64,000 nt of DNA from an uncultured Gemmatimonadaceae bacterium (GCA_963829055.1 CAWHHI010000011.1:416001-480000); one strand, 5' to 3'; shown: positions 313-61,521, numbered from the stretch's first letter. A program made the numbers and translations. The notes: a model not told the origin generated them from the letters alone.

Positions 313-950
313 TGGAGCTCCCACGACAATCAGAGTTGCCGACCGCGCGTCGGCGAACGCCTTTTCGGTAGCTGGGCGGTCTCCTAACGCGGGAGATCCC
401 TGGCTTTGCGGACCGGCCTCGCGACCGGGGTGCCTTTGTCGAATGGAACGGAAGACAACGGCGATGATCGAGCGCGACGTGCGCCGGTCATCGTGACTAC
501 TCGAGCGTGTGTGCCTGACGAGTGGAGCGCTCGGCGACAGCCCGGCGGCGATCTCCGCTAGTCAGAGCGGCACGGAGAGAAGGCAACCCGCGCACCGCCG
601 GCGGACGTGCGTCGTGTCCGTACCGTCAACCGCAGGGAATGCATGCGGTTGTGGGTGATCGCTTGGGGCACTAACCAAATCGGCGGCAGCGGGTGCCGGC
701 GACGGCGCTGTTGCGCCGCCGCGCACGCGTCGTGGGTGCGCTGCCACACGTTCGCGACGCGCGAGGCGTGTCAAACCCCGTTCGGAGGTCCGCGGAGCGC
801 GCGGACGATCTGTCCGAACGTACGCTGCCAACGTGACCGGGCGGCCGCGCGGGCGACGGCGAGTCGCTCGTGGTAACAGCGGTTCGTGGGTGGCGACCGC
901 AGTTGTTAGGCGGCCGGCCGCACGCACGGAACAGGGCGTGGATGCACGAA

Positions 951-1018
951 TCCCCTACGAGGCGCCCCCTTTCGTGCGGCTCTCGTAGGGGATCGTCGCT
1001 GCCGGACCCCGGCAGCGA
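951..1018 (-). terminator. double hairpin downstream of the giant surface protein gene, possible terminator
   Basis: TCCCCTACGAG(951-961)...CTCGTAGGGGA(982-992) and TCGCTGCCGG-ACC-CCGGCAGCGA(996-1018), just past the stop at 1032. No clear U-tract. Confidence 0.4.
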
Positions 1019-1031
1019 TGCCTATCGTGCG

Positions 1032-4000
1032 CTACTTGTCGTGAATCTGAATGCTACCACCACCGAGGAGTGCGTGGTGTGCCAGACGGATCGCGGTCGT
1101 CCGGCGCGCCCATTCGGTTGTCGTAACGGTGGCACCGTCGGTGCCATTGCGTTCTTGATTCCGATTTTCATGCGGAACGTGTCGGGCGCGCCCTTCGACT
1201 CGTCGCCGTCGATGGCGGTGAGCATGAAGCCGTACCTCACCGCCTCCGTTGATCGTGCCGACGCCCTTGTACTGCGCCTTCGTGCCGGCGATCACGAGCC
1301 AGTCGTACGACGTCGAGCTTGAAGTTCAAGTTGCCGGCCTGGAACTGGAACTCCGTGTTGCCCGTCCGGCGCGGTCTGACCCTTCTTGTACTTCGCGACG
1401 AAGCCGAAGTTGGCCTTGCCCACTGCGCCGCCGCACGTCCGGCTAAGCTGACAGGCGCCCGACGGCGAGTTGATCCAGCCGCCGCCGGTCACGAATCCAC
1501 CGGACGGGTCGTACACGACTATGTAAGCGAAGGTCTCGCTCTGACTGGTGCGCGACCCGGTGCCGGCATTGTTATCCCTGACCGTGACCCGCACCGTATA
1601 GACCCCCGCTGCTTGGTACGTGTTGCCCCCTGATACGATGCCTTGCACGCTGGAGGTCGGCTCCGACGCGACCGGTGAAAACGTCGAGGTGAAGCTGCCA
1701 GGCGTTTTCGCATTCGTCGCGAGGTCCCAATCCCAATCGACGCTGAACGTGTGCGTATCCGTCAGCCCCGGGTCAATGAACTTCGCGGTCAGATTGGCCG
1801 CCGACCCAAGTGAGATCGCCGTCGTTGGTAACGTTATCGATGTGACGGTCGGCGCGACGTTATTGACCGTCAGAACCTTCGTTAGGCTCGTCCCGGCGTA
1901 GTTCTGATCGCTCGAGACGAAATCCACGCGAATATCATACGGCCCTGCGCCGAACACCGGCGTTCCAACAGTGACGGTTGTTGATGGAAGCAATGTGTAC
2001 ACAAAAGTGCCAGCGACCGCTGGACCCGCGATTACCGGTTGAGCTATAGCGTTGAGTTGTGCCGCCGTGAGCTGGCTTCCTTGGTCCACGGAAGACGGCA
2101 TGCCGTTCCAAACGATCGCAGGCGTCGCCTTCGTCACTGAGAGTTTTCCGTTGACGTAAGCGATGTTGTAGTTCGCGAGCGCGCCGCCGACCGCTGCCGT
2201 CGGGATGATGTCGTACGGCGAACCCGCTACCGCTGCCGCCGCTGGTGTGCCAGCACTGGTGAGCGTGACGGACGCGACCACGTCGCCATTCACCAGCTGA
2301 CCGCTCCCGGTGGTGAAGCCGGTTGCTCCGTCCAGAACCAGTGCCTGGCCATATGTCTTCGTCGCGTTCTTAGCCGTGATCGTGAGCGCCCGCGCGTTCA
2401 CCGTCAGCTTACCGTCTACGTAGCCGACCGCGTAGTTGGCGAGCCCCGTCCCAGCGGCGGCACTCGGCGCGACTGCGAAGGGCGAGCCAGCGACCAATGC
2501 CGTCGCCGCGGCTCCCGCACTCGTCAACGTTACACCGGTCACCGCGTCTCCATTGACCAACTGCCCGGCTACTGTCGTGAACCCGGCCGCGCCGTCCAGC
2601 GCGGCGACGTCACCGTAGGTCTTGCTGACGTCCTTGGCGGTAATCGTCAGGGTCCGATGATTCACAGTCAGCTTGCCGGGGACATAGCCGATCGCGTAGT
2701 TCGTGAGTCCCGTACCGACGGCTACGCTCGCGACGACGTCGTACGGCGAGCCAGCGACCAGGGCGGTTACAACGGCACCCGGGCTCGCCAGCGTCACGCT
2801 GTTGACGACGTCGTTGTTCACGAGCTGGCCCGCTCCTGTTGTGAATCCCACTGCGCCGTCAAGCGTGGCGGCGTCGCCGTACACCTTACTCGCGTCCTTG
2901 GCGGTAATCGTCAGGGGACGCGGGTCGACCTTCAGATTGCCCTTTACGTAGCTGATCACGTAGTTGGCCAAGGCCGCACCCGACGCGGCGCTGGCTATGA
3001 TGTCGTAGTTCCCCACCGCCGCCGTTCCTAGCGTACCGGCGCTCGTCAACGTCACGCCGTTCACAGCGTCGCCATTCACCAGATCGCCGGTCCCGGTCGT
3101 AAAGCCCGACGCGCCATTGAGAGTGGCGACGTCGCCGTAGATCTTAGCGAGGTCCTTGGCCGTGATCGTTAGGGTCCGCGGCTTCACGGTGAGCTTGCCG
3201 GCTGCGTAGTCGATCGCGTAGTTGTCCAATCCCGTGCCTACCGCCGCACTCGCTGCGATCGCGTATGGTGAGCCTCCCACGAGTGCGGCCCCCGGCGCGC
3301 CGGCGCTCGTCAGCGTCACGCTGTTCACGACGTCTTCGTTCACCAACTGCCCGGACCCGGTCGAGAACTCGTTTCCGGCGAAGGTCACCATTTCGCCATA
3401 GGTCTTGGTCCTGTCGTTGGCGGTAACGGTCAACGGCCGTGGGCTCACGTTCAGCTTGCCCTTCTGGTAAGTGACAGTGTAGTTCAGCAGTCCGGTGCCG
3501 ACTGCCGCGCTTGCGACGATGTCGTAGCTCGGCCACTGTCGCCGTCGCCACCGCGCCTGGGCTGATCAAACGTGACGCTGCTGACCACGTCTCCGTTCAC
3601 CAAGTCGCCTGTGCTAGTTGTGAAGCCGCTCGCCCCGTCGAGTACCGCCGGATCGCCATAGATCTTGTTGGCATCCTTGGCGGTAATGGTGAGCGGACGC
3701 GGCCCGACGGTCAGCTTGCCGTTCACGTAGCCGATTGTGTAGTTGCGCGAGTCCCGTGCCGACGGCATTGCTCGCGACAATGTCGTACGGCGACCCACCG
3801 ACGGACGCCGATGCAGGCGCGCCAGCGCTCGTCAGCGTCACCGAGCTCACTCCGTCGCCGTTGAGCAGTCCCACCGTTGTGAACTCGGTACCGGCGAAGG
3901 TCACCGTTTGACCGTAGACCTTTGTACGCGCGGCGGCGGTAATTGTCAGCGCCTTCGGGTCGACCTTCAGCTTCCCGACGGCATACGTGATCACGTAGTT

Positions 4001-6532
4001 CGTGAGCCCCGTGCCCACGGCATTGCTCGGTGTGATGTCGTACGGTGACCCCGCACACCGCCGCCGTCGCCGCCGCGCCTACGCTCGAGAGGGCAACGGA
4101 GGCTACGGCGTCGCCGCTAACGACGCCGGTCGCCGTAAACTCTGTACCGGCGAAAGTCACTGCTTCGCCGTAGGCCTTTGTTCGGTCGCTGGCGGTGATA
4201 GTCAGTGCCTTCGGATCGACCTTCAAGAGTGCGGTTCCAAACGACCCCGCCAGCGTGGCGTCTGCCGTGAATTCGGCACGCACGCCTGAGCTGGCGCCCG
4301 GGCTATACGTCCCTGCGTTGACTCCCGCGAGACTCACGTTAGGCAATATCGCGACGCCACTCGCATTGGTCGTTGCCGTTCCGGCAGGGGTTCCGTTCAG
4401 TGAAAACGCGACGGCCTTCCCGGAGAGCGGAGTAGTTCCAGTCTTGAGCGTGGCCCTCAGCGTGGCCGTTCCGCCGTAGGCACCCGTTGCCGGATCGACC
4501 GCCAGCGTGGTCGCAATTTGATTGATGACCTGGGCGACCTGTGTACTGGTGCTAGTCACGAAGTTTGTAGCACCGGCGTACGTGGCAGTGACGTTGTGCG
4601 TGCCGACCACCAAGGCTGATGTCGTGAACGTTGCCGTTTGCACGCCACCGATATTCGAGAGCGGCACGGCACCAAGGGTCGTCGCGCCTTCCTTGAAATC
4701 GACATTCCCCGTTGGCGTGCCCGCTCCTGGACTCACGGCCGCGACGGTTGCCGTGAACGTCACCGGCTGACCGAACGTCGACGGGTTGAGGGACGACGCA
4801 AGCGTTGTAGTCGTCTGCGCTTGATTGACGACTTGGCTGAGGGGCGCACTCGTACTCGCGTTGAAACTCCCTGCGACGCCGGTGTAGTCGACGGTGATGG
4901 AATGCGAACCGACAATGAGCGCGCTGGTTGACACAGTCGCCTGTCCATTCGCCAAGTTTACGGTACCTAGCGCCGCTGCTCCGTCCTTGAATGTGACCGA
5001 CCCACTCGGGGTGCCAGCCGAAGCCGTGACGGTCGCAGTAAATGTGACAGACTGGCCAAATACGGATGGGTTGGCCGAGCTTGCCACCGTTGTGGTGGTG
5101 TTGACCGCAGATGGCGCGGCGATCGCCAGCGTGACATTGGCCGATTCCTCGAACTGAGGATTGGGCGGCCCACAGTCGCCAGCACTCCCTGTAGCTCGGA
5201 CCTTGAACGTATGGTTTCCGGTCGCAACTGCGGCGGTCGTATTCACCGTCAGCAGCGAATTCCTAACGTCTTGGTTTGCACCCTGTAAGGTGGACGGAGC
5301 AAACGTGGCCGTCGCGCCACTTGGCAGTCCAACAGCGGTAAGGGTGACCGTACATGTACCACTGCCGTTGAACGCGACTGCAACAGACGTCGCTGCGGTA
5401 GTGCCGTACGTGGCTGATCCACCCGGGCTGAACGAGCTCGGCGTCTGACCACCGAGAACGGTTACAGTCTTGATCGAGGTGTTGTCGGTGAACGTCGTCT
5501 GGGCGCGGCGACCGCTTGCTGACCGACCGCCGTCAGCACGAACCGCACGCCGATGTCGTATTCCTTCGGCGCGAAGTCGGTGTTGGTGATGCTTCCGTTC
5601 CCGTCTGCGATCGCGGTCAACTCGGTATCTGCGTCGCGTAGCGGATCCATGTGCAACGTCAACTTCACTGTCTCACCGGCCTGCCAGCCGGAACCCGTGA
5701 TGACGACTGGAGTCCCAGGCGCATAGTCGTCCTTATCCGTCTTGACCACGGCGCCGGTCGTGTTTCCCGCCTCGACGGTGAGCAGCACCACCTGCCCACC
5801 AACCGACGTCCCCGTCTGCCCCACGGCATCGAGGCTGACTCCGGCCGCCCCGTTAGGCACCTGGAACCCATACGTCGCCATGTTCGCGTAGGCGATCGGC
5901 CCCGTACCCGAGGTCAGAATCGTCGTGCCCCGCGAGTTCAACGCGCGGGCAGCGTCATAGCTCAACAGGTTCGCATCCGCCGTTACCGGCAGCGGCGTGA
6001 TCCCACGCAGCCAGTCATACCGCGCGCTGGACGACGACGAACCATCGAGCAACCCAACGAGCCCCGGCCCCTTCGCCGTCCCGAACGCTCCGGCGGCCCA
6101 CGCCGTGAGGTTCTGGATCAACGCATCCTTCGCCGTCCTGTTGGACGCACCCTGATCCGGCGATCCCGACCACAGTGCGATCCGCCCGATGAGCGCCGCC
6201 TTGAGGTGCTCCACCACCTCCGGGTCGCGCAGCTTCGCGTACGGCTGCGACGTCGCGCCATCGGCCAGCGACGGCACGACGAACACCGAATACGTGAACA
6301 GGTCGACCGTCTTGAGGTCGACCGTCCCGCCGGTGCCGTCGAACCCGCGGTCGACGCCTAACGGGAACGCGCCGCCGCTCAGGGCAGTGACGATCGCGTT
6401 ACACCCGGTCGCGTCGACCGACACCGGGCAGTACACCAGCGCCTTCTGGGCCTGGGTCGTGGACGGCACTACGGCAAGTACGCCGAGCATCACGCTGGCG
6501 AGCAGCGTGACGCGCTGAATCGACAATCTCAT
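1032..6532 (-). CDS. giant secreted/surface protein: 2 bacterial Ig-like (group 3) domains, 8 MBG-type repeats, PKD-like domain and conserved C-terminal beta domain (~1800 aa, several frameshifts)
   Basis: Merged from ORFs 5462-6532, 3723-5246, 3614-4018, 3484-3798, 1292-3448 and 1032-1295. Signal peptide MRLSIQRVTLLASVMLGVLAVVPSTTQAQ. TTTTxASSxNPSxFGQxVTFTATV occurs twice and LT(I/V)TAxxxxKxYG eight times. C-terminal VVYDPSGGFVTGGGWINSP...GKANFGFVAKY...GGGSIQIHDK*. Confidence 0.85.
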
Positions 6533-6563
6533 GTGTCGCGCTCGTTAGGCGAAGGAGGCAGGA

Positions 6564-7144: not shown

Positions 7145-8587
7145 TCAGGCGGGCGCTGGTATCTCTCGACGCCGGAGCCGGCGGTCAGCTTCCTGGCTCA
7201 CGTCCGCGGCGGACAGGATGATGCGAAAAGTCGAGCCCTCGCCGACCTCGCTCTGCACCTCGAGACGATACCCCATGAGGTCGCATAACGATTTCGAGAC
7301 CGCGAGACCCAACCCGGTCCCACCGTACTGCCGCGCCGTGCTGCTGTCGGCTTGCTCGAACGCTCCGAAGATCGCTTGCTGTCTGTCGGCCGGAATACCG
7401 ATCCCGGTATCCACGACCTCAATGCGCTCCGGACGACGCGACGCCGCGTCCGCGAGGACCCGTACCACGACGCGACCGTGCTCGGTGAACTTGATCGCGT
7501 TCCCAATCAGGTTCGTGAGCACCTGCAACAGCTTCGCCGGGTCACTCATGATCGGCGTCAGGTGGTCGGGGATCTCCGCATCCAACACGATCGGGCGGTC
7601 GCGCAACTGCCCCTCGAACGACGCGATCGTGTCCTCGACCAACTCGCCAACGGCAACCGGAGCCCGCTCGAGCCGCATCCGCCCTGCCTCGATCTTCGAC
7701 AGATCCAGTACTTCGTCGATGAGCGAGAGCAGATGCCCGCCGCCGGCCTTGATGCGCTGCAGGTACACGAGATCCCGCTCCAGCAGGTTGCCCGCGCGGT
7801 TGCGCAGCAGCACGTTCGAGAAACCGATCACCGAGTTGAGTGGAGTCCGGAGCTCGTGACTCATCATGGCGAGGAACTCGCTCTTCGCGCGACTCGCCGC
7901 CTCCGCAAACTCCTTGGCGCGGCGCGCCTCCTCCTCGGCCCGAAGCCGTCGGTCAATGTCCCGGGTCACCACCAGCGCTGCTGCGAGGCCGAGCATCACC
8001 GCGACGAAGAAGCTCCCGGCGATGAGCGTCGTCGCGCGACTCATGCTGTGGCGCTCCTGCTCGGACCGGTCGCGAAGGCGCGCGGATTCGTCGGCAGCCA
8101 TGGCCGCCACTACACCACGAATCGAATCCATCACCACGCGTCCTCGGCCGGACCGAGCAGACGTGGCGGCGCTATTGAAGCCTCCGTTCGCCCGCAGGCG
8201 GATGGCGTCGTCGAGAATCGCAAACCGCTGCGCCACGAGCGGCGTCAGCCGCTCGAGTCGCTCCCGCTGCGCCGAGTCGCCCTCGGCAAGACGCTCGAGT
8301 GCTCGAAGCCGAGTGACAGCGTCGGCCTCCGCGGTCCGATACGGTTCGAGGTACTGTGCGTCACCCGTGATGACGAAACCACGCGAGCCTGTCTCGGCTC
8401 CAGTAACGAGAGAAAGGACATCCTGGAGCGTGCGCAGGATGACGTTCGTGCGTTCCGCGCGCGCGGTCGTTTCGCCGAGCCGCTCGACGCTCTGGTATGC
8501 GATCGCCCCGATCACGGCGAGATAGAGGACCCCCACCATGAACGCCCCCGCGACCTTCTCGGACAGCGTTAGGCGACGCAACTTCAT
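7145..8587 (-). CDS. CHASE3-domain sensor histidine kinase
   Basis: Two TM helices flank CHASE3-like AETGSRGFVITGDAQYLEPY. H-box MSHELRTPLNSVIGF, N-box NLIGNAIKFT, and G-boxes DTGIGI and GGTGLGL. Confidence 0.92.
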   Translation of the reverse strand: MKLRRLTLSEKVAGAFMVGVLYLAVIGAIAYQSVERLGETTARAERTNVILRTLQDVLSLVTGAETGSRGFVITGDAQYLEPYRTAEADAVTRLRALERLAEGDSAQRERLERLTPLVAQRFAILDDAIRLRANGGFNSAATSARSGRGRVVMDSIRGVVAAMAADESARLRDRSEQERHSMSRATTLIAGSFFVAVMLGLAAALVVTRDIDRRLRAEEEARRAKEFAEAASRAKSEFLAMMSHELRTPLNSVIGFSNVLLRNRAGNLLERDLVYLQRIKAGGGHLLSLIDEVLDLSKIEAGRMRLERAPVAVGELVEDTIASFEGQLRDRPIVLDAEIPDHLTPIMSDPAKLLQVLTNLIGNAIKFTEHGRVVVRVLADAASRRPERIEVVDTGIGIPADRQQAIFGAFEQADSSTARQYGGTGLGLAVSKSLCDLMGYRLEVQSEVGEGSTFRIILSAADVSQEADRRLRRREIPAPA

Positions 8588-10406: not shown

Positions 10407-13095
10407 TCAGCTCTGCAGGGCCTTCGTCGGCTCGACGCGGGTCGCACGCCGCGCCGGCACCACGCTCGCGGCGAGCGCCACCAGCCCGAGCACTATCGGC
10501 ACGAGCACGAAGGTCAGCGGGATCCCGCGTGCCGATTCCGAAGACGAGGCTCGCGAGCAGCCGGCTCGCCACGACCGCCAGCGTGACGCCCACCACGATG
10601 CCGAGCACCACGGGACGCATCCCCTGCCCGACCACCAGCCGCAGCACGCGTCCGGGTGTCGCGCCGAGCGCCATTCGGAGGCCGATCTCGCCGGTCCGTT
10701 GCGTCACGAAATACGCCACGACACCATAGATCCCGACCGCCGCGAGCAGCGAGCCCGATCGACACCGAGCGTCGTGAGCAGCAGCGTGTTGAAGCGGCCC
10801 GGTGGCGAGCGACGCCGACATGCGCTCGTCCATCGAACGGATGTCGAACATCGGAAGCGTCGGCGTCCACCCTGGCGACCGCCGCCTGCAGCTGCTTGGT
10901 CATCGCCCGCGGATCCCCGTCGGTGCGCGCGACGATGAACGTCGACCGCTGCATCGCGAACCAGAACGCCGCCGGCGCCTGGGCGGCCGCGAAGTAGATC
11001 TGCGGTCGCACGGCTTCACGCAGCCCGTCGTCGTGTGCGTCGCCGACGACGCCGACGACTCTGCACATGGTGCGCGTGCCCGGCGGAGTCGCGCGGTCCG
11101 GGAATTCGCTTGCCGATCGCCGATTCGTTAGGCCACGCCTGCTTCGCGCGCGGCCTCGTTGACGATCAGCGCGCACGGCGCGCTCGCCACGTCGCGGTCG
11201 TCGAAGTCACGCCCCTGCTTGATCGGGATACCGAACGTTCGGAACACGCCCGGCGTCGCGAGCCGGAAGTTGAACGAGATGGAGTTGCTCGGGTCGTCGG
11301 CGCGACCCTCCGGCATGAAGACGCCGCGCAGAGAGGCCCGTCATCGGCAATGACCGTGATGGCTGCCGCGGACTGCACGCCCGGCACTGCGCGCACCTCG
11401 GTCAGGATGCGGTCGTACGCCGTCGCGACACTCTCGACGCTCTCGTACTGTGCCGGCGGGAGCGCAACCCACGCCGAGAATACGCGCGCGTCACGAACCC
11501 GGGCTCGACGCGCTGCAGCATGATGCCGCTTCGGATCAGCAGCCCTGCGCCCACGAGCAGCATGAGCGAGAGCGACGACCTCGGCCGCCACGAGCAGCTG
11601 TCGCACGCGGTCGCGCGCCGAGCCGCCGGAGCCGCGTCCGCCTTCACGCAGCGCCCCCTGCAGATCCGGACGCGCGGTCCGCAGCGCCGGCACGATCCCG
11701 AACACGATGCTGCTCAGCGAGCGTCGCGCCTAACGCGAATGCCACGGTCGTCAGGTCCAGCCCGGCCTGGTCGAGTCGCGGCACCTCGCTCGGCGCCGTC
11801 GCCTTGAGGAGACGCACGCCCCAGAACGCGAGCCCGAGCCCGATCACTCCGCCGATGCCGGCAAGCACGAGGCTCTCGGTGAACAGTTGCCGGAGCACGC
11901 GCCCGCGACCCGCACCGAGCGCGGCGCGGATCGCGATCTCCTTGCCGCGCGCCGCTCCGCGCGCGAGCAGCAGGTTCGCGACGTTCACGCACGCGATGAG
12001 CAGCACGAACGCCACGGCGCCGAGCAGGATGAACAAGCCGCGACCGATACGAGCCGACGTAGATGTCGGTGAGCGACGCGATCCGCACGCCGTTCTCGCG
12101 ATTCTCCTCGAGCTCCGTCTCGAGTCGCTTCGCGATCTGACGACATCTCCTGTCTGCGCCTGCGCCTGCGATACGCCGGGCGCGAGGCGCGCGAACACGT
12201 CGAGGTATCCCTTCCGGGAATCGGCCCGCTCCTCGGCGGTAAATGCCATCGGGACCCAGACGTTCGCGTCCTCGAGCAACGCATCGGCAGACGCCGACGC
12301 CACGCCGATGATCACGTGATCGACGGCGTTGAGCCGGATCGCTACGACCGATCATGCTCGAGTCGCCGTTGAACCGCGACTGCCAGAATCGCTCGTTCAG
12401 AACGACGACGTTCGACCGACCGACCTGATCTTCGTCCTTGGTGAACGGCCGGCCCAGCACGCATCCCGACGCGCAGCGCGGGGAAGAAATCCGCGGAGAC
12501 ACGCTCGCCGGTCACCTGTTCCGCTGGGCGATCGCCGGTGATGAGCGTGAAGTTCCGGTACTCGACCGGAACGAGCTGCGAGAAGGAGTGCGCGCGCTCG
12601 CGCCAGGCGACGAAGTTGGCGGCACTCGTGCTCGCGTCGTCACCGCGACGGTTGGAGTAGATGCGAACCAGCCGATCGGGCTCCGGAAATGGCAGCGGGC
12701 GCAGCACGACGGCGTGCACGACGCTGAAGATGGCGGTCGTCGCGCCGATCCCGATGGCGAGCGTCAGCGCAGCGACCGTGGTGAATCCGGGCATGCGCGC
12801 GAGCTGGCGCAGCGCATAGCGACGCGTCCTGCACGACCTCGTGTATCCATTCGGCACGGCGCATATCCCGCTCCCTTCCCTCGCCAATGCGGCGACAGGT
12901 GTTGTTGACTCGTTGGATGTCGCCGAAGCGACCGACGGCTTTCGCGCGCGCGAGCTCGGGATCGAGCCCGCGCGCGATGTACTCGCGCGTGCGCATCTCG
13001 ACGTGGAACGCGAGCTCGGCGTCGACCTCGTCGGCGACGCTCGCCTTCCACATGAGCGAGCGCAGCTGGCGACCGAACGTGCCCTGACGCGGCAT
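10407..13095 (-). CDS. ABC transporter permease, duplicated MacB/FtsX type (ADOP-like), multiple frameshifts
   Basis: N-term DEVDAELAFHVEMR; PGFTTVAALTLAIGIGATTAIFSVVHAVVLRPLPF; LLIACVNVANLLLARG...EIAIRAALGAGR; GIYGVVAYFVTQRTGEIGLRMALGA; C-term ARRATRVEPTKALQS*. Confidence 0.88.
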
Positions 13096-13123
13096 GACTC
13101 GCGATGCGCGACGCGGATGGCCG

Positions 13124-13455
13124 TTAGGCGGGCAGCAGGATGCGCGACACGGCACCGGCGAACCGCGCCCACTCCTCGGTCTCGGCGCGCAGCTGCTTGC
13201 GTCCCGACGGCGGTGAGCCGATAGAGCTTCGCCTTGCGGCCGAGCTCCGACTCGCCCCACTCGGCTTCGATCCACCCTTTGCGTTCCATGCGGTAGAGCG
13301 ACGGATAGAGCGAGCCCTCTTCGATGACGAGCTCGTCGCCGCTCGTGTCCTCGAGCCACCGCGCGATGGCGTACCCGTGGCGCGGGCCCCAGCTCAGCGT
13401 CTTGAGCACGAGGGCATCGAGCGTCCCGTGCAGGTCCTTTGGCGGCGACAGCCAT
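13124..13455 (-). CDS. PadR-family transcriptional regulator (type paired with ADOP permeases), frameshifted
   Basis: LKTLSWGPRHGYAIARWL...EEGSLYPSLYRMERKGWIEAEWGESELGRKAKLYRLT, directly upstream of the permease. Confidence 0.9.
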
Positions 13456-21095: not shown

Positions 21096-21110
21096 TCCCC
21101 GTGCCGACAC

Positions 21111-27744: not shown

Positions 27745-27771
27745 GCGTTACTCCAATGTCCTCCCGGTGAT

Positions 27772-43919: not shown

Positions 43920-43999
43920 GCGACCGGACGGTTCGTCGCACTCTCGCTGTGGTGGTTGTCCGACCCGCTGCCTAACGACTCACCTTTCGTCCGGAACAC

Positions 44000-45107: not shown

Positions 45108-45116
45108 CCGGACCGC

Positions 45117-45671: not shown

Positions 45672-45677
45672 CGCGAC

Positions 45678-47179: not shown

Positions 47180-47362
47180 CGGCGAAGTGCGCCGCCCACG
47201 GCTGAGACTCCACACACCACAGTTGAGCCCATAGCATTCGCTCGTGGCATCGATGCTTCACCTGCCACGAGACGCAGAAGAAGGATGGGCTGGTGCTGAG
47301 CAGCTACCGTCAGTGAGCGTGGGGCACGCGCACCCCGGTGGCCGTCCCGTTAGGCGAACGAC

Positions 47363-48804: not shown

Positions 48805-49722
48805 TCAGTTCACCTTGAACGACGCGAGCACGCCGCGCTTGTAGTCGCGCTCGCGCTCGCCCACGTGCTTCGTAGTACAGAACACCACGTGCATCCCCGA
48901 CTGCAGTGTCAGCCGCGTCTGGGCAGTAACGAACGCCGACATTGGCGTTAGGCCGCCCACGTACACGAACGGCGCCTCGTCGTTCCGATCCCGGTCCCAG
49001 CGCGCCACGTCAGCCACCGTCTTGCCCGGCTTGAGGCGCCCGATCACCGCATCATGCGGCCTCGCGCCCACGTTGTCGAACTGCAACGTCCGCTGGCCGG
49101 TCTTCAGCACGCCGGTCACGTCGATGCGCGCATCCTTGAGCTTGATCATCGCGTCAGGCACCGCGAATCGCGCGGGGATGAGCACCGAGCCCGCAATGAT
49201 CGTGACGTCGCGCCAGATATAGCGATCCGCGCGTGGACGTCCGGCCGAGTCGACTTCGTACGACACGAGAACGTAGCGGCCGGGACGGAGGTCGACCGTC
49301 GCGTTCGCGTCAGGCGCGGAATCGCGCGGGACCGCGGGTCCGCCGAAGCTCGCCTGCTCGAACCACCGCTCTGGCCTGCCGGCCGCCCCGCGTGCGACCG
49401 TCTCGGGCGGAGTGCCCGCGGGAACGCGGTGCAGCGTGAGATCGCGCCGCGTCTTCCCCGCCAACTGCAAGCGGAGCGTCGTGATTCCCGCTGGCACCGA
49501 TGGGGGCGTCTGGAGCGCGCTATCGGTGGCAATCACCGTCAACGTGCGTTGCGCCTGAGCCGTGGCAAGCGGGATCAGAGTCGAACCAGCGAGTACAGTG
49601 ACCGCGAGACCGACGCGGGCGCAGAGCGCGGCAAGGCGGCGCGTAACGACTCTACTCGTGAGGCAAACCACCAGGGAGGGTTCGGAGGTGATGGGAGTGC
49701 AGTGCGCGACGGACGCGCACAC
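48805..49722 (-). CDS. secreted hypothetical protein with two similar beta-rich (cupredoxin-like?) halves; true start probably downstream of 49722
   Basis: Signal ending AQA-Q; VPAGITTLRL...VDLRPGRYVLV and LKTGQRTLQFDNVG...LTLQSGMHVVFC. Confidence 0.6.
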   Translation of the reverse strand: MCASVAHCTPITSEPSLVVCLTSRVVTRRLAALCARVGLAVTVLAGSTLIPLATAQAQRTLTVIATDSALQTPPSVPAGITTLRLQLAGKTRRDLTLHRVPAGTPPETVARGAAGRPERWFEQASFGGPAVPRDSAPDANATVDLRPGRYVLVSYEVDSAGRPRADRYIWRDVTIIAGSVLIPARFAVPDAMIKLKDARIDVTGVLKTGQRTLQFDNVGARPHDAVIGRLKPGKTVADVARWDRDRNDEAPFVYVGGLTPMSAFVTAQTRLTLQSGMHVVFCTTKHVGERERDYKRGVLASFKVN

Positions 49723-50201: not shown

Positions 50202-50237
50202 GCCGGGCCGCCGACGTTGCCCGTTAGGCGCCGGACG

Positions 50238-52878: not shown

Positions 52879-53601
52879 TTAGTCCTTCTCGTTGATGCGG
52901 AACGTGAACGTCTGCTCCACCAGCTGACGCACCTTGTGCCCACGCGCCTCCGCGGGCTCGAAGCGCGCCCGAGTGAGCGCCGTGCGGACCGCCGCCGCGA
53001 ACTGGTCGTGCGACGCATCGAGCACGCGCACGCTGCCCGATTCCACGCGACCGAGCGTGTCGACCACGAACTGTGCGTGCACATCGCCCTCCACGCCAGC
53101 GCTCTGCAGCATCGACGGGTAGCGTGGCGTGGCCGTGCCCGGAAGCGCGACGACCACCTTGTCCACGACACGCTCCGACAGCGGCTCTCCAGGCGCGCCG
53201 TTAGGCGCCCCACCCACCACCACGGAATCGCGGCCACTGATCCGACTCGGCCGCCCAAATGCCTCGTCCACCCGAATCATCGCGCCGGCATCAGGGAGCG
53301 TCATTGGAACATCGCTGGTGATCACTGGCGCGGGGAGCTCGATCGTCGGGATGGCCGGCACCGTCGGCGCGGACGTCGCCGGTAGAGTGCGCCGAACAGG
53401 CGGCGGCATTTTGGGCCGTGCTGGTCCTCGCTCCACGAACACCGGCTGCGGGACGACGTCGACCTTCGGCCGCGGCGCCGCTGTCAGCATCGTCGCCCGA
53501 ACAGCGAGCGCTATCAGCACCACGTGCATCGCCGTACTGACCACGAGCCCACCGGTGCGACGCTGGCGTGGCGCGTTCGATTCGGGAAGTCGACTGAACA
53601 T
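52879..53601 (-). CDS. tonB: energy transducer TonB family protein
   Basis: TM with VSTAMHVVL (S-x3-H); Pro-rich linker; C-terminal PRYPSMLQSAGVEGDVHAQFVVDTLGRVE...FEPA...QTFTF; GGAGG RBS. Confidence 0.9.
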   Translation of the reverse strand: MFSRLPESNAPRQRRTGGLVVSTAMHVVLIALAVRATMLTAAPRPKVDVVPQPVFVERGPARPKMPPPVRRTLPATSAPTVPAIPTIELPAPVITSDVPMTLPDAGAMIRVDEAFGRPSRISGRDSVVVGGAPNGAPGEPLSERVVDKVVVALPGTATPRYPSMLQSAGVEGDVHAQFVVDTLGRVESGSVRVLDASHDQFAAAVRTALTRARFEPAEARGHKVRQLVEQTFTFRINEKD

Positions 53602-54327: not shown

Positions 54328-54508
54328 CGAGTGAAACACCGGTGTGGAGGGTCGCTCGTTTCTACACCGCACCGCTGCTCGCGTGCCGGCATCGATGCGA
54401 ATCGACCGTGGCGGCCTGAGCTGCCACGGTCGATCGCCCACGACTCACTGTCGAGCAGACGCCCGCCTAACGCACGTCCGAATATCTACGCGCGTCAGGC
54501 GTCCCGGC

Positions 54509-55813
54509 TCAGGCGTCCCGGTTCGCGCACCCGGAGAACGCGGAGTTGTTTTTCTCAGCCTGTGACGGCGGGAGATTCATGTCGCTGCCATACACGCCGC
54601 CCTTGAAGTAGGTGCCGGTCGGCCAGACGGTATTCGGCGCTCGCGAATACTGCCGCACGAGGCGCCGAAGGTCGCCGACGCGATGCGACGTGAAGTACAT
54701 CCAGAACGCGCGCTCCCGGAACAGCAGGTCCACTCTCGCGTTCGCCGATCCGGGATCGGTGAGCGGCGTGAGACCCGACAGCGTCGCGCGCGCCGTGTTC
54801 AACTTGCCGAGCCACCCCGCGGCATCACCGGTGGCCAACAGATTCTCGGCCTCGATGAGCCGCGCCTCGATGCCCGTCGCGAGCGGCACGGGCGAATCGC
54901 CCTTCGGATACATCTGCGTCAACCAGATCGGAGTGCCGTCCTGCCCCGGGCGAGTTTTCGTCGCGTCGACCTTGATGCGCGGGTCCTTCGACGAGACGTA
55001 GTCCAGACCATTGCCGCCTTCCTTGTCCGACGGCCCGAAGTTCGGCGTCGCGAGCATCCAGTCGTAGACGTCGTTGACGATCGTCGTGGCCGAGAACTCG
55101 ACGTTGTAGACGTAGTCCGTCGGCACGGTAGCGACGGCGGTCGCGGCTTCGGCGTATCGCTTGAGATCGACGAGCGCGCGACCCTTTCCAACGAGCGCCG
55201 CGTTGCGGACCTTCGTGTCGGTAGCCGCCGCCGTGGTGAGTGCCGTGTCGAACTTCGCGATCGCCAGCGTGAACAGCTCGGCGTTGCTCATGATCGTCGT
55301 CGTCGGGTTCTGGTCATCCGCGTTTCCAACCGGGATGCCGTTGCAGTACCCTTCGCCGGCGATGACGTACGTGAAGCCCTCGAGCATGTAGAGCTGCGCG
55401 ATCTGCGACGTCGTCGTCGCGCCGGGCGTCGCATACTTGCTGAGCGACTTGATCGCGCGAATGATCTGCGTGTTCGCCTGTCCGAACGTGGTCCACACGG
55501 TCGAGGGGAACACGGCGTCGTTGACGGCGCGGCTGTCGAGGTGCTCTGTCCCACCGCGCGCGCTGAGCATCTCATCGCCGAGGAGCCCCGTGGCGATGTT
55601 CATGCCGACGCCGTTACCGGCGTTGTCGCCGGCAAAGAAGTTCGCGAAGTTGCCTAACGCCGCCGTGCGTAGCGCGGCGGCGCCGGGCGCCGAGTTCGCC
55701 TGCTCCGGCGTGATCTGATCCGGCGTCTCCACCTCCGTCAGCTTGTCGGCGCTGCAGGCCGCGACAAGGGCGGCGACCATGACGCCCGCGAGATATCGAT
55801 GCATCCGTGGCAT
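54509..55813 (-). CDS. RagB/SusD family outer membrane lipoprotein
   Basis: Lipobox LVAAC; GLLGDEM; EGYCNGIP; GIEARLIEAE; LFRERAFWMYFTSHRVGDLRRLVRQY; directly downstream of susC. Confidence 0.88.
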   Translation of the reverse strand: MPRMHRYLAGVMVAALVAACSADKLTEVETPDQITPEQANSAPGAAALRTAALGNFANFFAGDNAGNGVGMNIATGLLGDEMLSARGGTEHLDSRAVNDAVFPSTVWTTFGQANTQIIRAIKSLSKYATPGATTTSQIAQLYMLEGFTYVIAGEGYCNGIPVGNADDQNPTTTIMSNAELFTLAIAKFDTALTTAAATDTKVRNAALVGKGRALVDLKRYAEAATAVATVPTDYVYNVEFSATTIVNDVYDWMLATPNFGPSDKEGGNGLDYVSSKDPRIKVDATKTRPGQDGTPIWLTQMYPKGDSPVPLATGIEARLIEAENLLATGDAAGWLGKLNTARATLSGLTPLTDPGSANARVDLLFRERAFWMYFTSHRVGDLRRLVRQYSRAPNTVWPTGTYFKGGVYGSDMNLPPSQAEKNNSAFSGCANRDA

Positions 55814-55854: not shown

Positions 55855-58800
55855 TCAGAATCCGAGGTTGAGGCGCACGATCCAGTAGCGGAGCGCGGGC
55901 GGTGAGAAGAAGTCGTTGTTGCCACCGCCGGTGTTCGCGGCATTGCTGTTCGCCTCGGGATCGATGCCCGGATACTTCGTCCATGGCGTGCCGAGATTGC
56001 GCCCGCTCAGGACGAGCGTGGCGGACCGAGCGCGCGCGTTGCGGACGAACCGCTCCGGCACGGTGTACGCGAGCGACATCTCACGGAATCGGACGAAGTC
56101 GTTCCGCACGAACAACCCCCACTGCGTGCGCTTGCTCGGGCTGTTCGCGGCCACCGCCGCTGCCTGATCGGCGAGCGGCGCCGTCGGATCGTTCACCGCT
56201 CGGCAGTTGCCACTCGACACGCAGCGCTGGTTCTGGTAGCCCCACTGGTTGTAGAAGTTGCCGCGATAGTCGAAGAGCGTGGTGAGACGGAGCGTGTTCT
56301 TGAAGAAGCCGAGTGATCCCGAGAGTCCAGCCTGGCGCTCGGGAAGCGTGGGCCCCGGTACAGGGCCGTGTCGCTGACGACGATCTCATTTTCGGTGATG
56401 ATCCCGTCGTTGTTCGCGTCGGCGTAGGAAATCAGCTTGCGATCCCAGAGACCGAACAGCGGAAAGCCTTCGACGTTTCGCGAACCCGGGGCGGTCGGAA
56501 GAGGCGCGCCACCGGCGTCGGTCAGCTTGTTCTTGATGATGGAGCCGTTCAGCCGCAGGTCGAACGTGATGGGATCCGACGCGATAGACGGTCGCATCGA
56601 TGTTCGCCTCGAAGCCGCGGTTCTGGACCTGCGCGAGGTTCTCCCATTTGGTCGCGCCGGCGCCGTACGATGGCGGCAGCGGCCGGTTGAACAGCGCGTC
56701 CTTCGATCCCTTGTTGAAGAACGTGGCTTCCACGTTCACGCGATCATTGAGGAATCCGACATCGAGGCCGGCCTCCATTTCGGTCGTCACTTCGGGTTTG
56801 AGATCGGGGTTACCGATCGACGTTAGGCGCAGCCCTGGCGCCTCACCGCTCTCGGTCGGATAGGTCGCGGCGTTGAGGTACTGGATCGCGGCGACGGTGC
56901 CCGGCTGGACGCCGGCCTTGCCGTACGCACTGCGAAGTCGCAGACGATTCATGCCGGGAACTCTCGGCCACCACGTCCTCCTCCGAGATCACGTACGAGA
57001 GCGAGGCACGCGGATAGACCGTGTTGCCGACATCACGGCCGAACGCGCTGTTCTTGTCGATGCGCGCGCCCGCCGTCGCGAACAGCTTGTCGCGCCATCC
57101 GATCTGTTCCTCGACGAATGCGCCGTAGGTCGCGTTCTCGGTCGTGAACTCGAACGCCCGCACCTGCGATCCGGCGGAGTTGGGCGTCGACGCGCCCGGT
57201 GGCAGGTTGTAGCCCTGCCCCTGAGACTGATACAGCTCGTCCTTGAACCACTGCGCGCCAACCGACGTGCGCGAGGAGATCGTCGGTGTGGCTGCCCACG
57301 TCCCGGTCGCCCCGAGGTCGACCGTGTACTTGCGTGCTGTTGGAGCGGTCGAGGAACTTGCCGCCTTCCTGGCCGTTCGGTCCCCACGCCAGGCCGACGC
57401 GCGTGCCTTCGCCGCGAAGCTGCTCGCGGAAGTTGAACCCATGGTCCTGATCGATGCCGACGACCGCGCGCCCCTGGAGCCACGACTTGGGCGACCAGTT
57501 GAGCGACGTGCTCGCCGTCAGGCGCTGATCCTGGAGCTCCTGCTGAATCGACATCACGTCGCCAGGCAGCTCACGCTGGTAGCCTTCCGTCGTGCCGCGC
57601 ACACCGCGCGCGGTGATCGCCTGGAACGTGAGTCCGGCGAAGAACCCGCCGTCGAACGGCGTGAACAGACGCTGGTCCGTGTACCCGCTCGATACATCCA
57701 GCGTCAGCGTTGGCGTCAACGACAGACCGAAGTTGCCGCGAATGTTGTTCGACTTGAGCTGGTTCGGGTGGATCTGTTTCGGACGCGGGCGCGTTCCCCG
57801 CTCTTCCGTGAGCCGAGTGATCTCGCTCGCCGGCATCTCGTACGGCCCGACTTCCGACTCGTGATCACCGGACATGAAATAGCGCAGCCGTTCGGAGCCT
57901 CCGGAGAACTGCAACCCGACCATCGATCGGGTCTGGTCCTTGAACGGCGTCGTCTGTGAGTTCATGAGCGGATTGAACGTCGTCAGGCTGTCGATCATGC
58001 ACTGCTTCGCGGCGAACGACGTGATCTTGCACTGGATCGGGTTGCCGGTGGGCTGGCCCGACGCGTTCAGGGACCGACCCCAGCTCGTGTAGTTCGGTTC
58101 GAACTGAGCCGGCTGCTGAACGATTCCGCCCTCTCCGAAGACGCTCCAATTCGTTCGTCCGACCTGTCCGCGTTTCGTCTTGATGACGATGACGCCGTTC
58201 GCGGCGGCCGTTCCGTACAGCGCTGCAGCCGATGGACCCTTGATGATGTCCATCGACTCGATGTCCTCGGTGCCGAGCGTGTTGAGGCGATTGATCCGCT
58301 GTGTGCTGACGTTGCCGCTGTTGGGCAGCTGCTGATTGTCGAAGCGCACGCCGTCGATGACGATGAGCGGCTCGTTCGTGAGCGACAGCGAGCTCGTACC
58401 GCGGATGCGGATCGAGGACGATGCACCGGTCTGCCCGGCGCCCTGAATCACCTGCACGCCGGAGGTGCGTCCCTGCAGCATCTCGTTGACGTTCGTGATG
58501 GGCGCTTCCTTCGCGACCGAATCGGCCGAGATGGTCGCGACGACGTTGCCGAATGTGCGTCGCTCCTGATCGCCGGTCGCGGTCGTCACGACTTCCGCGA
58601 GGCGCGTCGCCGCGCGCGTGATCGCGAGGTCCAGTCGCACCTCACCCGACGCGGGAACGGTGACTTGAGTGTCTGTTGGAGCGTATCCGATGCGGACGAC
58701 GTGCACCCTCTGTGGGCCTGACGGGACGCTCAGGATGACGAAGTCGCCATTCGGCTGAGTGACGGCGCCGAGCCGTGTGCCGGTGACCGCCACCTGAGCG

Positions 58801-58973
58801 GCGGCGACAGGAGCGCCGCCATCCGAGTCGGTGATGCGGCCGCGGATGGTTCCGGTTCCCGCTGTTTGCGCTGATAGTCCCGCGGGAAGCGCGAGACTCC
58901 CCACGAGGAGCAGCGGCGTGAGCCTACCTAACGATGATCTCACCAGTAGTGATCTCGCGAACGACAATGACAC
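55855..58973 (-). CDS. SusC/RagA family TonB-linked outer membrane transporter (frameshifted)
   Basis: GTG start with AGGAGG RBS; carboxypeptidase-regulatory-like N-term; IRIRGTSSLSLTNEPLIVIDGVR; DIESMDIIKGPSAAALYGTAAANGVIVIKTKRG; GNPDLKPE; C-terminal RLNLGF*. Confidence 0.92.
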
Positions 58974-59420
58974 GGGGTACCTCCTGCGTGCAGGTGGACT
59001 GACACGGGCATGTGATCCATCCGGCGTGGGCCCCTGGGCTGGCCGATCCGGCGGGCAGGACACGCTCGGACGGCGTGACGCCGGGTGGCGGACGCGCGGT
59101 GGCGGAGGCGTCGTGAGACGCGGGGTGCGGGGCGCGATGGCTCGTCGGACGACTCGATGCCATGGAATGATCGTTAGGCAGTGACGAAACGATCGCCGTG
59201 CATCACGGTTCGTCACAGAATTTTGCGTCCGGACGCCGGGTCCGACGCGCTCGATCTTCCTTTCGGTCGCGCAGCCGCGCAAACCTAGTGCCGGGACGTT
59301 GCGGGCGTGGGTGTATTGAGGGGCCGTGACGAGATGCTTCACGACGGGCGCGACTGTAGGATGCGACGTGATGCACCGCGCGCGGCCTAACGCGGCCGGC
59401 GGGATGTGCTCGAGGCCGGC

Positions 59421-59497: not shown

Positions 59498-60247
59498 CTA
59501 CGCGGCCGCCGCCTCCACGAAGTCGCGGAACAATACACCCGTGCTCGGCTCCGAGAGCTCGAATACTTCCGGGTGCCACTGCACGCCGACGATGAAGCGA
59601 TCGGCGTTAGGCGACTCGACCGCTTCGATGAGCCCGTCAGGCGCCGTGGCGGACGCGACCAGCGCCGACGCCAATACTTTGATTCCCTGATGATGCATGC
59701 TGTTCACGGGGACGGACGCACCAGTGAGCGCATGTCTCATTCTCGAGCCGGCCTGTACTGCGACCTCGTGCGCGAGATGATCGCGCGAGAAACCATACGT
59801 CGGGAAATAGTCGTGCTTGATCGCGTTCGGGTACTCGGCGTCGAGATCCTGATACAGCGTCCCACCGAGCGCGACGTTGATCACCTGCAACCCTCGGCAC
59901 AACCCGAGCACCGGTTTCCCGTCCTCGACCGCCCACTTCACGAGCTGGATCTCGACACGATCACGCGCCGGGTCGATACGACCCAATCGCTCGTGGGGAG
60001 TTTCTCCGAATACACCCGGGTCGACGTCGACGCCACCGGGGATCAGGATCCCATCCATGCGCTCGTAGATCGCGCGCAGCGTCTCGACCTCGTCGAGCAG
60101 CGGGATGAGCACGGGCGCCGCACCCGCCATCGCAGCCGCGTGGTAGTAGCGCTGGTTCATGACCACCGAATGCGGCAACCCCTCCGGGATGCCATCGATG
60201 GCCTGCAACGTCTGAGTAGTGATACCGATCAGTGGACTTGCGCGCAT
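59498..60247 (-). CDS. gamma-glutamyl-gamma-aminobutyrate hydrolase family (peptidase C26, PuuD-like)
   Basis: IPGGVDVDP; LGLCRGLQVINVALGGTLYQD; VNSMHHQGI; GVQWHPE. Confidence 0.93.
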   Translation of the reverse strand: MRASPLIGITTQTLQAIDGIPEGLPHSVVMNQRYYHAAAMAGAAPVLIPLLDEVETLRAIYERMDGILIPGGVDVDPGVFGETPHERLGRIDPARDRVEIQLVKWAVEDGKPVLGLCRGLQVINVALGGTLYQDLDAEYPNAIKHDYFPTYGFSRDHLAHEVAVQAGSRMRHALTGASVPVNSMHHQGIKVLASALVASATAPDGLIEAVESPNADRFIVGVQWHPEVFELSEPSTGVLFRDFVEAAAA

Positions 60248-60367
60248 TTACAGAGGATTGGGAGCTGTCATCCCCAGGGACATCCTGGAAAGCGACCACA
60301 CCGAAAGCACGATTGACGCCAGACTGTTCAAACGAAAGCTAGGTCACGACGTAGAGCCTCGGACATG

Positions 60368-61521
60368 TCAGGGAACGCCCGCCCCTTCGCCCTTCGGAAG
60401 CTCAGCGTCCTCCGGTATGACCCCCTCTCGCGTTTCCGCGATGAGGTGGTCGACGACCGCCTTGATGTCGCCCGTCTTCTCATACACGGCGATCTGCCGG
60501 TCGGCGCTCGACCCTCCCTCGAGGATCTTGAAGGCGTACTCGATTTCCTTGCGGCTGCCGAGCTCGTCCACGACGTCGTCGATGAACCACTCGATGCAGC
60601 TCGCGAATGAGCTCGCGCGCCGGCAGTTCGCGCTCCTTCCCGAAATCGATCAGCTTCCCGTCGAGCCCGTAGCGCACCGCGCGCCACTTGTTCTCGTCGA
60701 TGAGCTCCGACGGGTAGACGCGGAACGTGATGTTGTCGCGGCGCATCTTCCACATCTTCGCGACGATCGCCTGCAGGATGGCGGCGACACAGACGGCCTC
60801 GTCCACGCGCGTGAACACGTCGCAGACGCGGAACTCGAGCGTCGGGTACTTCCAGTGCGGGCGGACGTCCCACCAGATCTTCGAGCCGTCGGGAATGCAG
60901 CCCGTCGTGATGAGCGTGTCGAGATAGGTCTGGTAGTCGTTCCACGAGTCGAGAATCGGCGGGACGCCCGAGCGCGGAAAGCGCGGAAGACGACGCTGCG
61001 GTACGACTTGAGGCCGGTGCTGCCGGCCGATCCAGAACGGCGAGCTGGTGGAGAGGCAGAGGATGTGCGGCAGGAAGTAGCGCGCGACGTTCATCGCATC
61101 GATGAGGAAGTCGCGATCCTCGATGCCGATGTGCACGTGCGTGCCGAAGATCAGCAGCTGCTGCGCGAGATCCTGCATCGCGTCCTGCGTCCCGATGTAG
61201 CGCTCGAGCGGCGTGATCTCCTGGTCGACCCAGTGCGAGAACGGGTGCGTGCCGGCCGCGGCGATCGAGAGATTCTTGAGCCCGGCGAGCTCCATCACGC
61301 CTCGGCGCAGTCGCACGAGCTCTTCGCGCACTTCCTGCGGCGTGCGGCAGACCGTCGTTGCCGACCTCGACGATCGACTGGTGCAGCTCCGGCTTCACCT
61401 GCCCGAGAAAGCGGTGGTCGTACTCGAGGATCTGCGTGATGTACGACTGCAGCTCGCGAGTCTGCGGGTCGATGATCTGGTACTCTTCTTCGATGCCGAT
61501 CGTTAGGGAAGGAGGCTTCAT
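60368..61521 (-). CDS. ybdK: carboxylate-amine ligase, YbdK/GCS2 family (frameshifted)
   Basis: [67 protein letters not shown]. Confidence 0.9.

Follow-up and report, generated by a model that had tools for sequence, protein, structure and literature searches.

Why should a GC-rich genome repeat one eight-letter word thousands of times, on both strands, and write it into genes against their codon bias? The question is raised by a stretch of 64,000 nucleotides from an uncultured Gemmatimonadaceae bacterium (G000:C11:416001-480000, analysed at its full length and called the window below), in which an initial annotation had noticed the non-palindromic 8-mer GCCTAACG/CGTTAGGC and its 7-mer core, CCTAACG. 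We examined this word in the window, in the genome to which the window belongs and in related genomes. It is abundant, strand-symmetric and evenly spaced, fills the cheapest codon sites, is conserved at orthologous positions, is restricted to a lineage and is present in a phage; it bears every statistical hallmark of a DNA-uptake sequence (DUS). The best explanation, which we favour tentatively and by analogy with known systems, is a lineage-specific self-tag of the DUS type. The tag, maintained at a density of about one copy per 0.9-1.5 kb, would be recognised in duplex DNA whichever way round it lies.

The genome in question, G000, comprises 7.78 Mb in 20 contigs (66.7% GC, 85.9% complete), and its nearest named relatives are uncultured Gemmatimonadaceae metagenome-assembled genomes. 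Absence from such incomplete assemblies is to be read as 'not found', and the relatives compared are kin, so that counts across them are not independent.

The word in the genome and in its genes

How far does the word exceed chance? In the window the 8-mer occurs 44 times (20 copies on the plus strand, 24 on the minus strand), where dinucleotide-preserving shuffles give an expectation of 1.41; none of 100 shuffles reached 44, and the highest held 6. The 7-mer CCTAACG has 55 copies (29 plus, 26 minus) against 2.85 expected, and three sites read (T/G)GTTAGGC. The initial annotation had put these figures at about 43, about 54 and three; all of its example coordinates are among the 8-mer and 7-mer copies that we located, and with expectations this low the enrichment exceeds what it had estimated. 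The genome as a whole holds 5,004 copies of the 8-mer (2,457 forward and 2,547 reverse, 0.64/kb), and all 20 contigs carry it at 0.48-0.80/kb each. Despite its three A/T letters the word ranks 31st among 65,147 observed 8-mers, and it is the first among the 1,680 8-mers of equal composition, which have a runner-up at 2,972 copies and a median of 269. In a 400-kb sample, an order-2 Markov model predicts 4.5 copies where 180 are present (z 83, ratio 40). We relied on order 2 and on the same-composition ranking instead of maximal-order and order-4 Markov rankings, in which the word is masked by the high counts of the sub-words that it contains. Its flanks are unconserved apart from a weak avoidance of G on both sides, and since conservation does not extend past eight letters, no longer repeat contains the word as a segment. 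The specificity profile is [G>A]C[C>A]TAAC[G>A]. Literature searches with the raw 8-mers, and on DNA uptake sequences, integrons/attC and natural transformation in Gemmatimonads, gave no description of the word, most results being judged by title. A second repeat family in this genome, whose 669 copies share a core of about 21 nt (GGTTGTCATTCCGAGCGGAGG), has no copy in the window; it looks like an element of the repetitive extragenic palindromic (REP) or miniature inverted-repeat transposable element (MITE) type.

Could the word be polarised, as are some chromosomal signals? The annotation had called it unpolarised, and the near-equal totals for the two strands, genome-wide and in the window, agree. 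Word orientation has no link with GC skew (919/976 in bins of positive skew, 1,382/1,387 in bins of negative skew), unlike gene strand, which tracks the skew, and relative to the coding strand it is nearly balanced (1,609 sense, 1,780 antisense). Spacing is far from random: gaps of less than 200 bp number 215 where about 611 are expected, with an excess at 400-1,600 bp. The short-gap deficit is alike for ++, --, +- and -+ neighbours, and 46 close convergent pairs (<200 bp) are present where about 153 would be expected. This even spacing fits the idea that one tag per fragment is enough, and, being independent of orientation, it points to an advantage for each fragment and not to plain mutational bias.

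Density also follows composition. It rises with codon typicality from 0.47 to 0.63/kb over quintiles and, despite the AT-richness of the word, with local GC content from 0.29 to 0.80/kb; compositionally atypical DNA is poorer in the word. Five deserts of 12-16 kb contain ordinary metabolic genes. The sole long motif-free stretches, of 31-50 kb, lie at contig ends (C6:5440-55037, C6:591808-623330 and C11:1-46789; two of them have GC contents of 0.70 and 0.73) and hold housekeeping genes, namely aro/trp genes, FtsK, GreA and GlnA. FtsK, DAHP synthase and leucyl aminopeptidase of C6:5440-55037 have second copies on the motif-rich contig C16, with only 47-54% identity. These three largest deserts were considered as islands and ruled out as such, given their position at contig ends, their housekeeping genes and the divergent second copies; they are probably foreign or chimeric contig ends joined by assembly or binning, a point that had escaped the initial annotation. 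The lowest-GC contig, C19 (64.9%), carries rpoB at C19:47991-52509 in two frames with a break near 51343-51350, and is therefore chromosomal and not a plasmid.

Is the word an outcome of codon and amino-acid usage? Genes were called with a crude model built on open reading frames (ORFs) and codon likelihood, which gave 6,018 genes over 71% of the genome, so that sequence 'outside genes' includes missed genes. On this footing 3,064 of the 5,004 copies (about 61%) lie within called coding sequences, 327 over a stop codon, 3 over a start codon and 1,610 outside; the density is 0.61/kb in called coding sequence and 0.72/kb outside. When synonymous codons were permuted within each gene, with the protein and the gene's codon counts preserved, ten shuffles retained on average 99.7 + 47.9 copies (about 148), compared to 1,436 + 1,637 (3,073) observed in coding sequence. 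The enrichment thus persists under the shuffle that the annotation had proposed as a check. Its view of a DNA-level signal held against codon bias is borne out by this contrast and by the share of rare codons that the word takes up, which in called genes comes to 44% of the TTA codons and 14% of the CTA codons.

Inside genes only the four stop-free frames are occupied (xCG TTA GGC, 1,208 copies; nnC GTT AGG C, 426; nGC CTA ACG, 569; nnG CCT AAC G, 861), and the stop-bearing frame 0 is confined to gene ends. There the word forms a sharp peak, with 350 copies in one 10-nt bin at the stop codon versus about 25-30 in other bins, and 189 of 764 TAA and 159 of 1,593 TAG stops lie in the word. Density is two to three times higher in the 40 nt downstream of stops, and short spacers carry 1.02/kb when tandem, 1.10/kb when convergent and 0.72/kb when divergent. 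At permissive sites, where the protein permits the word without an amino-acid change, the degree of filling is 57% for x-P-N-[VADEG] (866/1,526), 22% for [SPTA]-L-G (1,209/5,471), 20% for [SCRG]-L-T (568/2,881) and 11% for x-V-R-[LPHQR] (428/4,047), an order inverse to codon cost. The peptides themselves are affected: the Pro-Asn dipeptide occurs at 1.38 times expectation, and in the transketolase gene tkt, the 8-mer at 42144..42151 (+) reads CCT AAC (Pro-Asn) where relatives have CCG GGC (Pro-Gly), so that here the word has altered the protein, from Gly to Asn.

Relatives, orthologous sites and a phage

Which bacteria carry the word? We made two surveys, of 31 relatives and of 401 genomes sampled evenly across the class, with the reversed word as control; the unpublished genomes G013, G164, G048, G045, G053 and G356 were counted in the tallies only as motif-poor rows. 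In the genus of the window (g1), 7/7 genomes are rich, with 2,501-5,112 copies, most of these assemblies being in 260-1,170 contigs. G014 belongs to a different genus and carries 6,360 copies over its 5.1 Mb. Counts are moderate in G010 (605) and G030 (345), while the 194 copies of G018 are not above control; the remaining relatives among the 31 have 6-65 copies, under a reversed-word control of about 40-430. Across the 401 genomes, at least twice the control is reached only in family f1 (G000; G244, 709; G268, 452; G342, 1,100; G409, 815) and in one f2 genus (G360, 726). In families f4-f10, 278 of 278 genomes are at or under control, and the word is not enriched there. Two congeners, G003 and G004, have about half the density of the others (2,501 and 2,861 copies versus 3,749-5,112), and may represent a lineage with weakened maintenance of the word.

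Do the two rich genera share one word? A 332-kb sample of G014 has 1.11 copies per kb, the same flank preference as G000 and 30 gaps below 200 bp where about 72 are expected, and its hierarchy of variants is that of G000 (position 1, G>A>C>T; position 3, C>A>G>T; position 8, G>A>C>T). The matching hierarchy, flanks and short-gap deficit indicate that g1 and G014 share one specificity. A quick RpoB tree was built from the 16 usable rows of 23 (in seven the wrong long ORF had been taken), among them the unpublished G013. It places G014 and g1 in one supported subclade with the motif-poor G017, G008 and G012, in an order that the tree leaves unresolved, and makes G004 the sister of the rich G005; the pattern weakly suggests several gains or losses of the word.

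Two same-genus loci carry the word at 0.52/kb (L002, from a contig named k141_ in the MEGAHIT style) and 0.56/kb (L001); fragmented and MEGAHIT-named assemblies of the genus alike have it, as asked of related assemblies by the annotation. DNA nearly identical to that of the window occurs in 20 runs from 15 studies of soil, rhizosphere and sediment. Contigs of four of these metagenome runs, aligned to window positions 38000-47000, have no difference in the nine copies there, among the 40 of 319 base differences and 12 of 31 indels listed.

Are individual copies maintained? Twenty kilobases of the window were aligned to five same-genus genomes at 77-78% DNA identity. Exact retention was 9/16 in G001, 8/17 in G002 and 10/17 in G005 (27/50 together), whereas control 8-mers in the same alignments were retained at 17-18%; the word is about three times better conserved. 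The half-density genomes retain fewer sites (G003 2/7, G004 4/10; 6/17 together). The clearest case is the minus-strand 8-mer at 41297..41304 in tkt, which uses the rare Leu codon TTA in the frame xCG TTA GGC. It is CGTTAGGC in 5/5 same-genus genomes, and likewise in L005, L007 and L012, loci from three further genera; loci that lack the word have CGCTCGGC, CGCTGGGA or CACTCGGC instead, encoding the same Leu-Gly.

We also scanned viral contigs for pairs of copies separated by 200-230 bp. Most of the 120 loci obtained were noise, and 97 of the 120 had no copy beyond the pair. One contig of 7,780 bp and 60% GC, L141, has 29 copies of CCTAAC (14 plus, 15 minus) versus 2.0 expected, 26 of them CCTAACG. 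All of its genes share one strand. They encode, among other products, virion structural proteins, an SU10-type adaptor and an endolysin, and identify L141 as a fragment of a tailed phage. Among 80 loci with relatives of its 510-aa structural protein, only L141 (3.3/kb) and the 99%-identical L253 (3.0/kb) carry the word; the other 78 have 0-0.15 CCTAACG per kb. According to PMC6776037, temperate phages of Pasteurellaceae accumulate the uptake signal sequence (USS) to host-like levels and large lytic phages do not. Given such USS-rich temperate phages, the L141 result parallels uptake tags and is not evidence against them. In four IMG/VR contigs (L129, L113, L116 and L158) the many copies either all point the same way and share their flanks exactly, or pair up as R'' and R' boxes; these contigs look like integron cassette arrays or tandem repeats, and not like phages saturated with the word. 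A prophage search of G000 with HK97 capsid, portal and TerL_ATPase profiles gave no match.

Copies within the window

Where do the copies of the window lie? Outside the sites treated individually, the 8-mer is found on the minus strand at 1880..1887, 4337..4344, 5851..5858, 6543..6550, 11126..11133, 15477..15484, 15920..15927, 28421..28428, 28794..28801, 47348..47355, 47606..47613, 48946..48953, 50222..50229, 53199..53206, 59172..59179 and 59605..59612, and on the plus strand at 6356..6363, 11728..11735, 18289..18296, 20145..20152, 43838..43845, 43970..43977, 44828..44835, 54465..54472 and 59385..59392. The 7-mer alone is present at 383..389, 5262..5268, 19801..19807, 25560..25566, 29409..29415, 31446..31452, 46567..46573 and 58927..58933 (all plus) and at 3167..3173 and 61501..61507 (both minus).

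Several copies could be followed into the genomes of the genus. The 8-mers at 25742..25749 (+) and 27739..27746 (-) are conserved in G001, G002 and G005, the one at 24705..24712 (+) in G001 and G002, and the one at 25061..25068 (+) in G005. The copy at 24501..24508 (+) is conserved in G005 and reads GCCGAACG/GCCGAACA in G001/G002; that at 26636..26643 (-) is conserved in G001 and G005 and reads CGCTCGGC in G002. Conservation extends to all five aligned genomes at 32567..32574 (+), while the copy at 32300..32307 (-) is missing at the matching site in all five. At 36177..36184 (-), G001, G002 and G005 have TGTTAGGC and G004 has the word; at 48248..48255 (+), G001, G002, G005 and G004 have it. 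Both 38694..38701 (+) and 39531..39538 (+) are conserved in G001, G002 and G005 and lost in G003 and G004.

The annotation had assigned copies to named genes, and to four stop codons. Three of these stops hold: the minus-strand copy at 27739..27746 reads CGT TAG GC on the plus strand and supplies the TAG (27742-27744) of a TfoX_N ORF (27418-27741); the plus-strand copy at 45666..45673 reads GCC TAA CG and supplies the TAA (45669-45671) of a GNAT ORF (45117-45668); and the reverse complement of the 7-mer at 21110..21116 (+) gives the TAG (21111-21113) of a minus-strand ORF. The fourth, a padR stop at 13124 within the 8-mer at 13122..13129 (-), is unconfirmed, as no ORF of at least 60 aa ends there. 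As to names, Pfam matches agree with tkt, histidine kinase, TfoX_N and GNAT, whereas the ORFs called susD (54509-55981, with the 8-mer at 55652..55659, +) and DUF4097 have no Pfam match at E<=1e-5. Through a trimming error the minus-strand ORF references, in these assignments and in those of the desert genes, lack their start and still include their stop, which left the Pfam matches unaffected. In the CHASE3 histidine-kinase ORF (7145-8584, -) the copy at 8567..8574 (-) stands in the frame nGC CTA ACG and uses the rare Leu codon CTA, and a fragment of a TonB-dependent receptor contains the copy at 56821..56828 (-).

The receptor (56386-59429) is one of many split genes in the window, among them a response regulator (9434-10124) and the transketolase gene, which is broken at 41102/41113 (40464-42504). 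Recurrent indels of 1-2 nt separate independent metagenome contigs from the window, for instance at 40445 and 42510, with three runs each. This points to indel errors of the G000 assembly rather than real pseudogenes.

A proposed self-tag and the alternatives

What could maintain such a word? The candidates listed by the annotation were reasonable, and an analogue of an uptake sequence fits the statistics best. On this model the type IV pilus/ComEA/ComEC route of uptake would include a DNA receptor, at the surface or in the periplasm, with a preference for fragments that bear the word; imported fragments would replace homologous DNA, and word-creating alleles would spread by biased uptake, as a molecular drive, perhaps plus selection, until the drive is balanced by codon and protein cost. 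The competence of these bacteria is something we infer within the model. G000 encodes DprA, a secretin and PilB/PilT-type ATPases, and both ComEC and HHH_3/ComEA-type matches are present in 31/31 relatives.

Two known systems provide the comparison, and both DUS and USS have densities comparable to the 0.64/kb of G000 and the 1.11/kb of G014. The USS has a non-palindromic 9-bp core that occurs about once per kb in both orientations, in genes and spacers, with even spacing and effects on codons and peptides, and is lineage-specific. The DUS of Neisseriaceae is 10-12 bp long and is read by the minor pilin ComP, ComP_DUS being the only known family of DUS receptors; it lies mostly between genes, and its close inverted pairs, which act as terminators, are common. 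The word is like the DUS in being hyper-abundant, strand-symmetric, frequent at gene ends and of one profile across genera; it differs in that about 61% of its copies lie in called coding sequence and few form close inverted pairs. It shares with the USS of Pasteurellaceae its density, orientation balance, even spacing, codon and peptide effects and accumulation in phages (for the USS, PMC6776037). It differs from the USS in phylum and sequence, lacks AT-rich flanks, is patchy among genera where the USS is family-wide, and coincides with an integron R box. That the word works like a DUS is supported; that it is a member of the DUS family is not.

A number of observations weigh against an uptake tag. 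ComP_DUS (PF16732) was found in 0/8 motif-rich genomes, its one match above cut-off being in the motif-poor G016, and the sole ComEA-type match of G000 is weak (35 bits, in an 81-aa ORF). The uptake genes are equally present in motif-poor relatives and therefore leave the patchiness unexplained; only some genera of one order are rich, where DUS and USS are family-wide, and the motif-poor G008 has, over 400 kb, no alternative outlier word (top z 19.9, ratio 4.9). Close inverted pairs are rare in G000, unlike the terminators formed by the DUS. An uptake model gives no reason to expect that the word should equal the integron R box, and the parallel with USS-rich temperate phages would fail if the L141 phage were virulent. 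We know of no competence or uptake bias in this phylum, and a literature search on Gemmatimonas and natural transformation, judged by title, found nothing relevant. More generally, none of IntI, Vsr, ComEC, TfoX_N (present in 20/31 genomes and unrelated to the word), RecC, the AddAB-like genes, ComP_DUS and HHH_3 tracks the word across the 31 genomes.

Might the tag be read inside the cell? The word could mark self for a system of DNA surveillance, repair or recombination. It would be Chi-like but unpolarised, shielding tagged DNA against degradation or attracting recombination as Chi does, and phages would copy the tag as self. Chi and the FtsK-orienting polar sequences/architecture imparting sequences (KOPS/AIMS) are, like the word, over-represented 8-mers that mark the host chromosome, and phages can copy Chi. 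Even, orientation-independent spacing would shield every segment from both sides; a system that could come and go like defence would suit the patchiness within one order and the lack of a replacement word in G008; and L141, at 3.3/kb, is denser than G000 or G014. We consider this alternative unlikely nevertheless. Chi and KOPS/AIMS are polarised with replication, a skew not seen for the word, and no candidate reader emerged among the families searched: RecC was found in 0/31 genomes, and AddAB-like double-nuclease (PDDEXK_1) genes were found in 13/31, with the motif-poor G008, G009, G011 and G016 among the 13 and no such gene found in the richest genome, G014. The phage, too, is accommodated by an uptake tag, as USS-rich temperate phages indicate (PMC6776037).

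Less likely still, the word would be a by-product of sequence-specific modification and biased repair, in which near-matches are 'corrected' into it. A drive of this kind has been discussed for the highly iterated palindrome HIP1 of cyanobacteria and is known for very-short-patch repair at Dcm sites, and the targets of single-chain methyltransferases are non-palindromic like this 8-bp word. The one variant hierarchy in two genera is in keeping with such a drive, which would convert any DNA replicating in the host, phage included. Pure mutational drive, however, does not predict the short-gap deficit, and Vsr (PF03852) was found in 0/8 motif-rich genomes and in 3 motif-poor ones, methyltransferase genes not having been searched for. 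HIP1 (GCGATCGC) is palindromic and linked to methyltransferases, whereas the word is asymmetric. The likeness is that HIP1, as described in PMC5861425, is an 8-mer over-represented tens of times and written into genes by selection, its function being unknown.

A further question is raised by integrons, a link that the initial annotation missed: the R-box core of the attC sites of this order (GTTAGGC / GCCTAAC) is exactly a 7-mer of the word, one and the same sequence. The generic attC consensus is R'' RYYYAAC / R' GTTRRRY, and the word's preference at position 1 for G and then A is that of the R in it. Where copies cluster in the motif-poor G021 and G019, most of them form the 3' R' box of such sites, in the form GCCTAACA...imperfect hairpin...CGTTAGGC, in one orientation and every 500-700 bp, and on G021 contig C80 the array adjoins matches to the integron integrase IntI. 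The order's cassettes each end in GCCTAAC...CGTTAGGC. G000 itself has an IntI match just above cut-off (C20:208041-208958, 265.7 bits) and about eight attC-like hairpins, GCCTAACGC...ACGTTAGG, scattered over about 90 kb without a tight array (C20:119251-205101). Judged from the sequences, the identity is unlikely to be due to chance, because a random 8-mer would match GTTRRRY on either strand with a probability of about 0.4% by our own estimate.

Could the word then be the binding site of an abundant chromosomal protein, either a nucleoid organiser or a tyrosine recombinase related to IntI or Xer that reads the duplex R box, spaced regularly for chromosome architecture or for attG-like cassette insertion? 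The even spacing and the R-box identity, with IntI and hairpins in G000, would suit such a site, and according to bioRxiv 10.1101/2022.09.11.507474, IntI can insert cassettes at duplex genomic sites with the core GWT, the attG consensus being only GWT. This alternative is very unlikely all the same. attC sites are hairpins of about 60-130 bp in arrays beside intI, and paired boxes with a hairpin were found at only about eight G000 sites; the other 5,000 or so copies are isolated, without hairpins or conserved flanks. IntI is above cut-off in 18/31 genomes, rich and poor alike, not above it in the rich G002 and G004 and fragmented in G014; cassette insertion would be harmful at the copies in called coding sequence; and we know of no nucleoid-protein site this dense in genes.

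The R box may also be linked to the word more indirectly. The word's reader would have arisen on, or would share its specificity with, the attC core, so that readers favour the import or sparing of the order's cassettes, and the spread over the chromosome would be a by-product of self-tagging. Natural transformation supplies cassettes to the chromosomal integron of Vibrio, according to PMC12614218, and together with insertion by IntI at GWT this makes a link between integrons and transformation plausible by analogy. We give the idea only a small chance. If true, an attC-specific reader would tie the harvesting of cassettes to natural transformation or to a missing-self filter, and would extend the Vibrio finding of PMC12614218.

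An origin of the word in errors of sequencing, assembly or binning, or in mere amino-acid and codon usage, is vanishingly improbable and refuted as far as tested: for all the split genes of G000 and its recurrent 1-2 nt indels relative to independent contigs, the word survives comparison with codon- and protein-preserving shuffles, avoids the stop frame inside genes, is carried by the 7 genomes of the genus and by L001 and L002, and, in nine window copies compared with four other metagenomes, is free of listed differences.

What follows from a word of this kind? It is usable as a sharp lineage barcode, which flags foreign or chimeric contig ends in G000 and assigns phages to their hosts. Its identity with the R box suggests a possible link of DNA import with cassette capture. 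Should it be a self-tag of the uptake type, it would be the first outside the Proteobacteria and would offer a second, independent system for an old problem, whether it is drive or selection that gives rise to such tags. It would also mean sequence-selective gene exchange in a widespread, hardly cultured phylum of soil bacteria.

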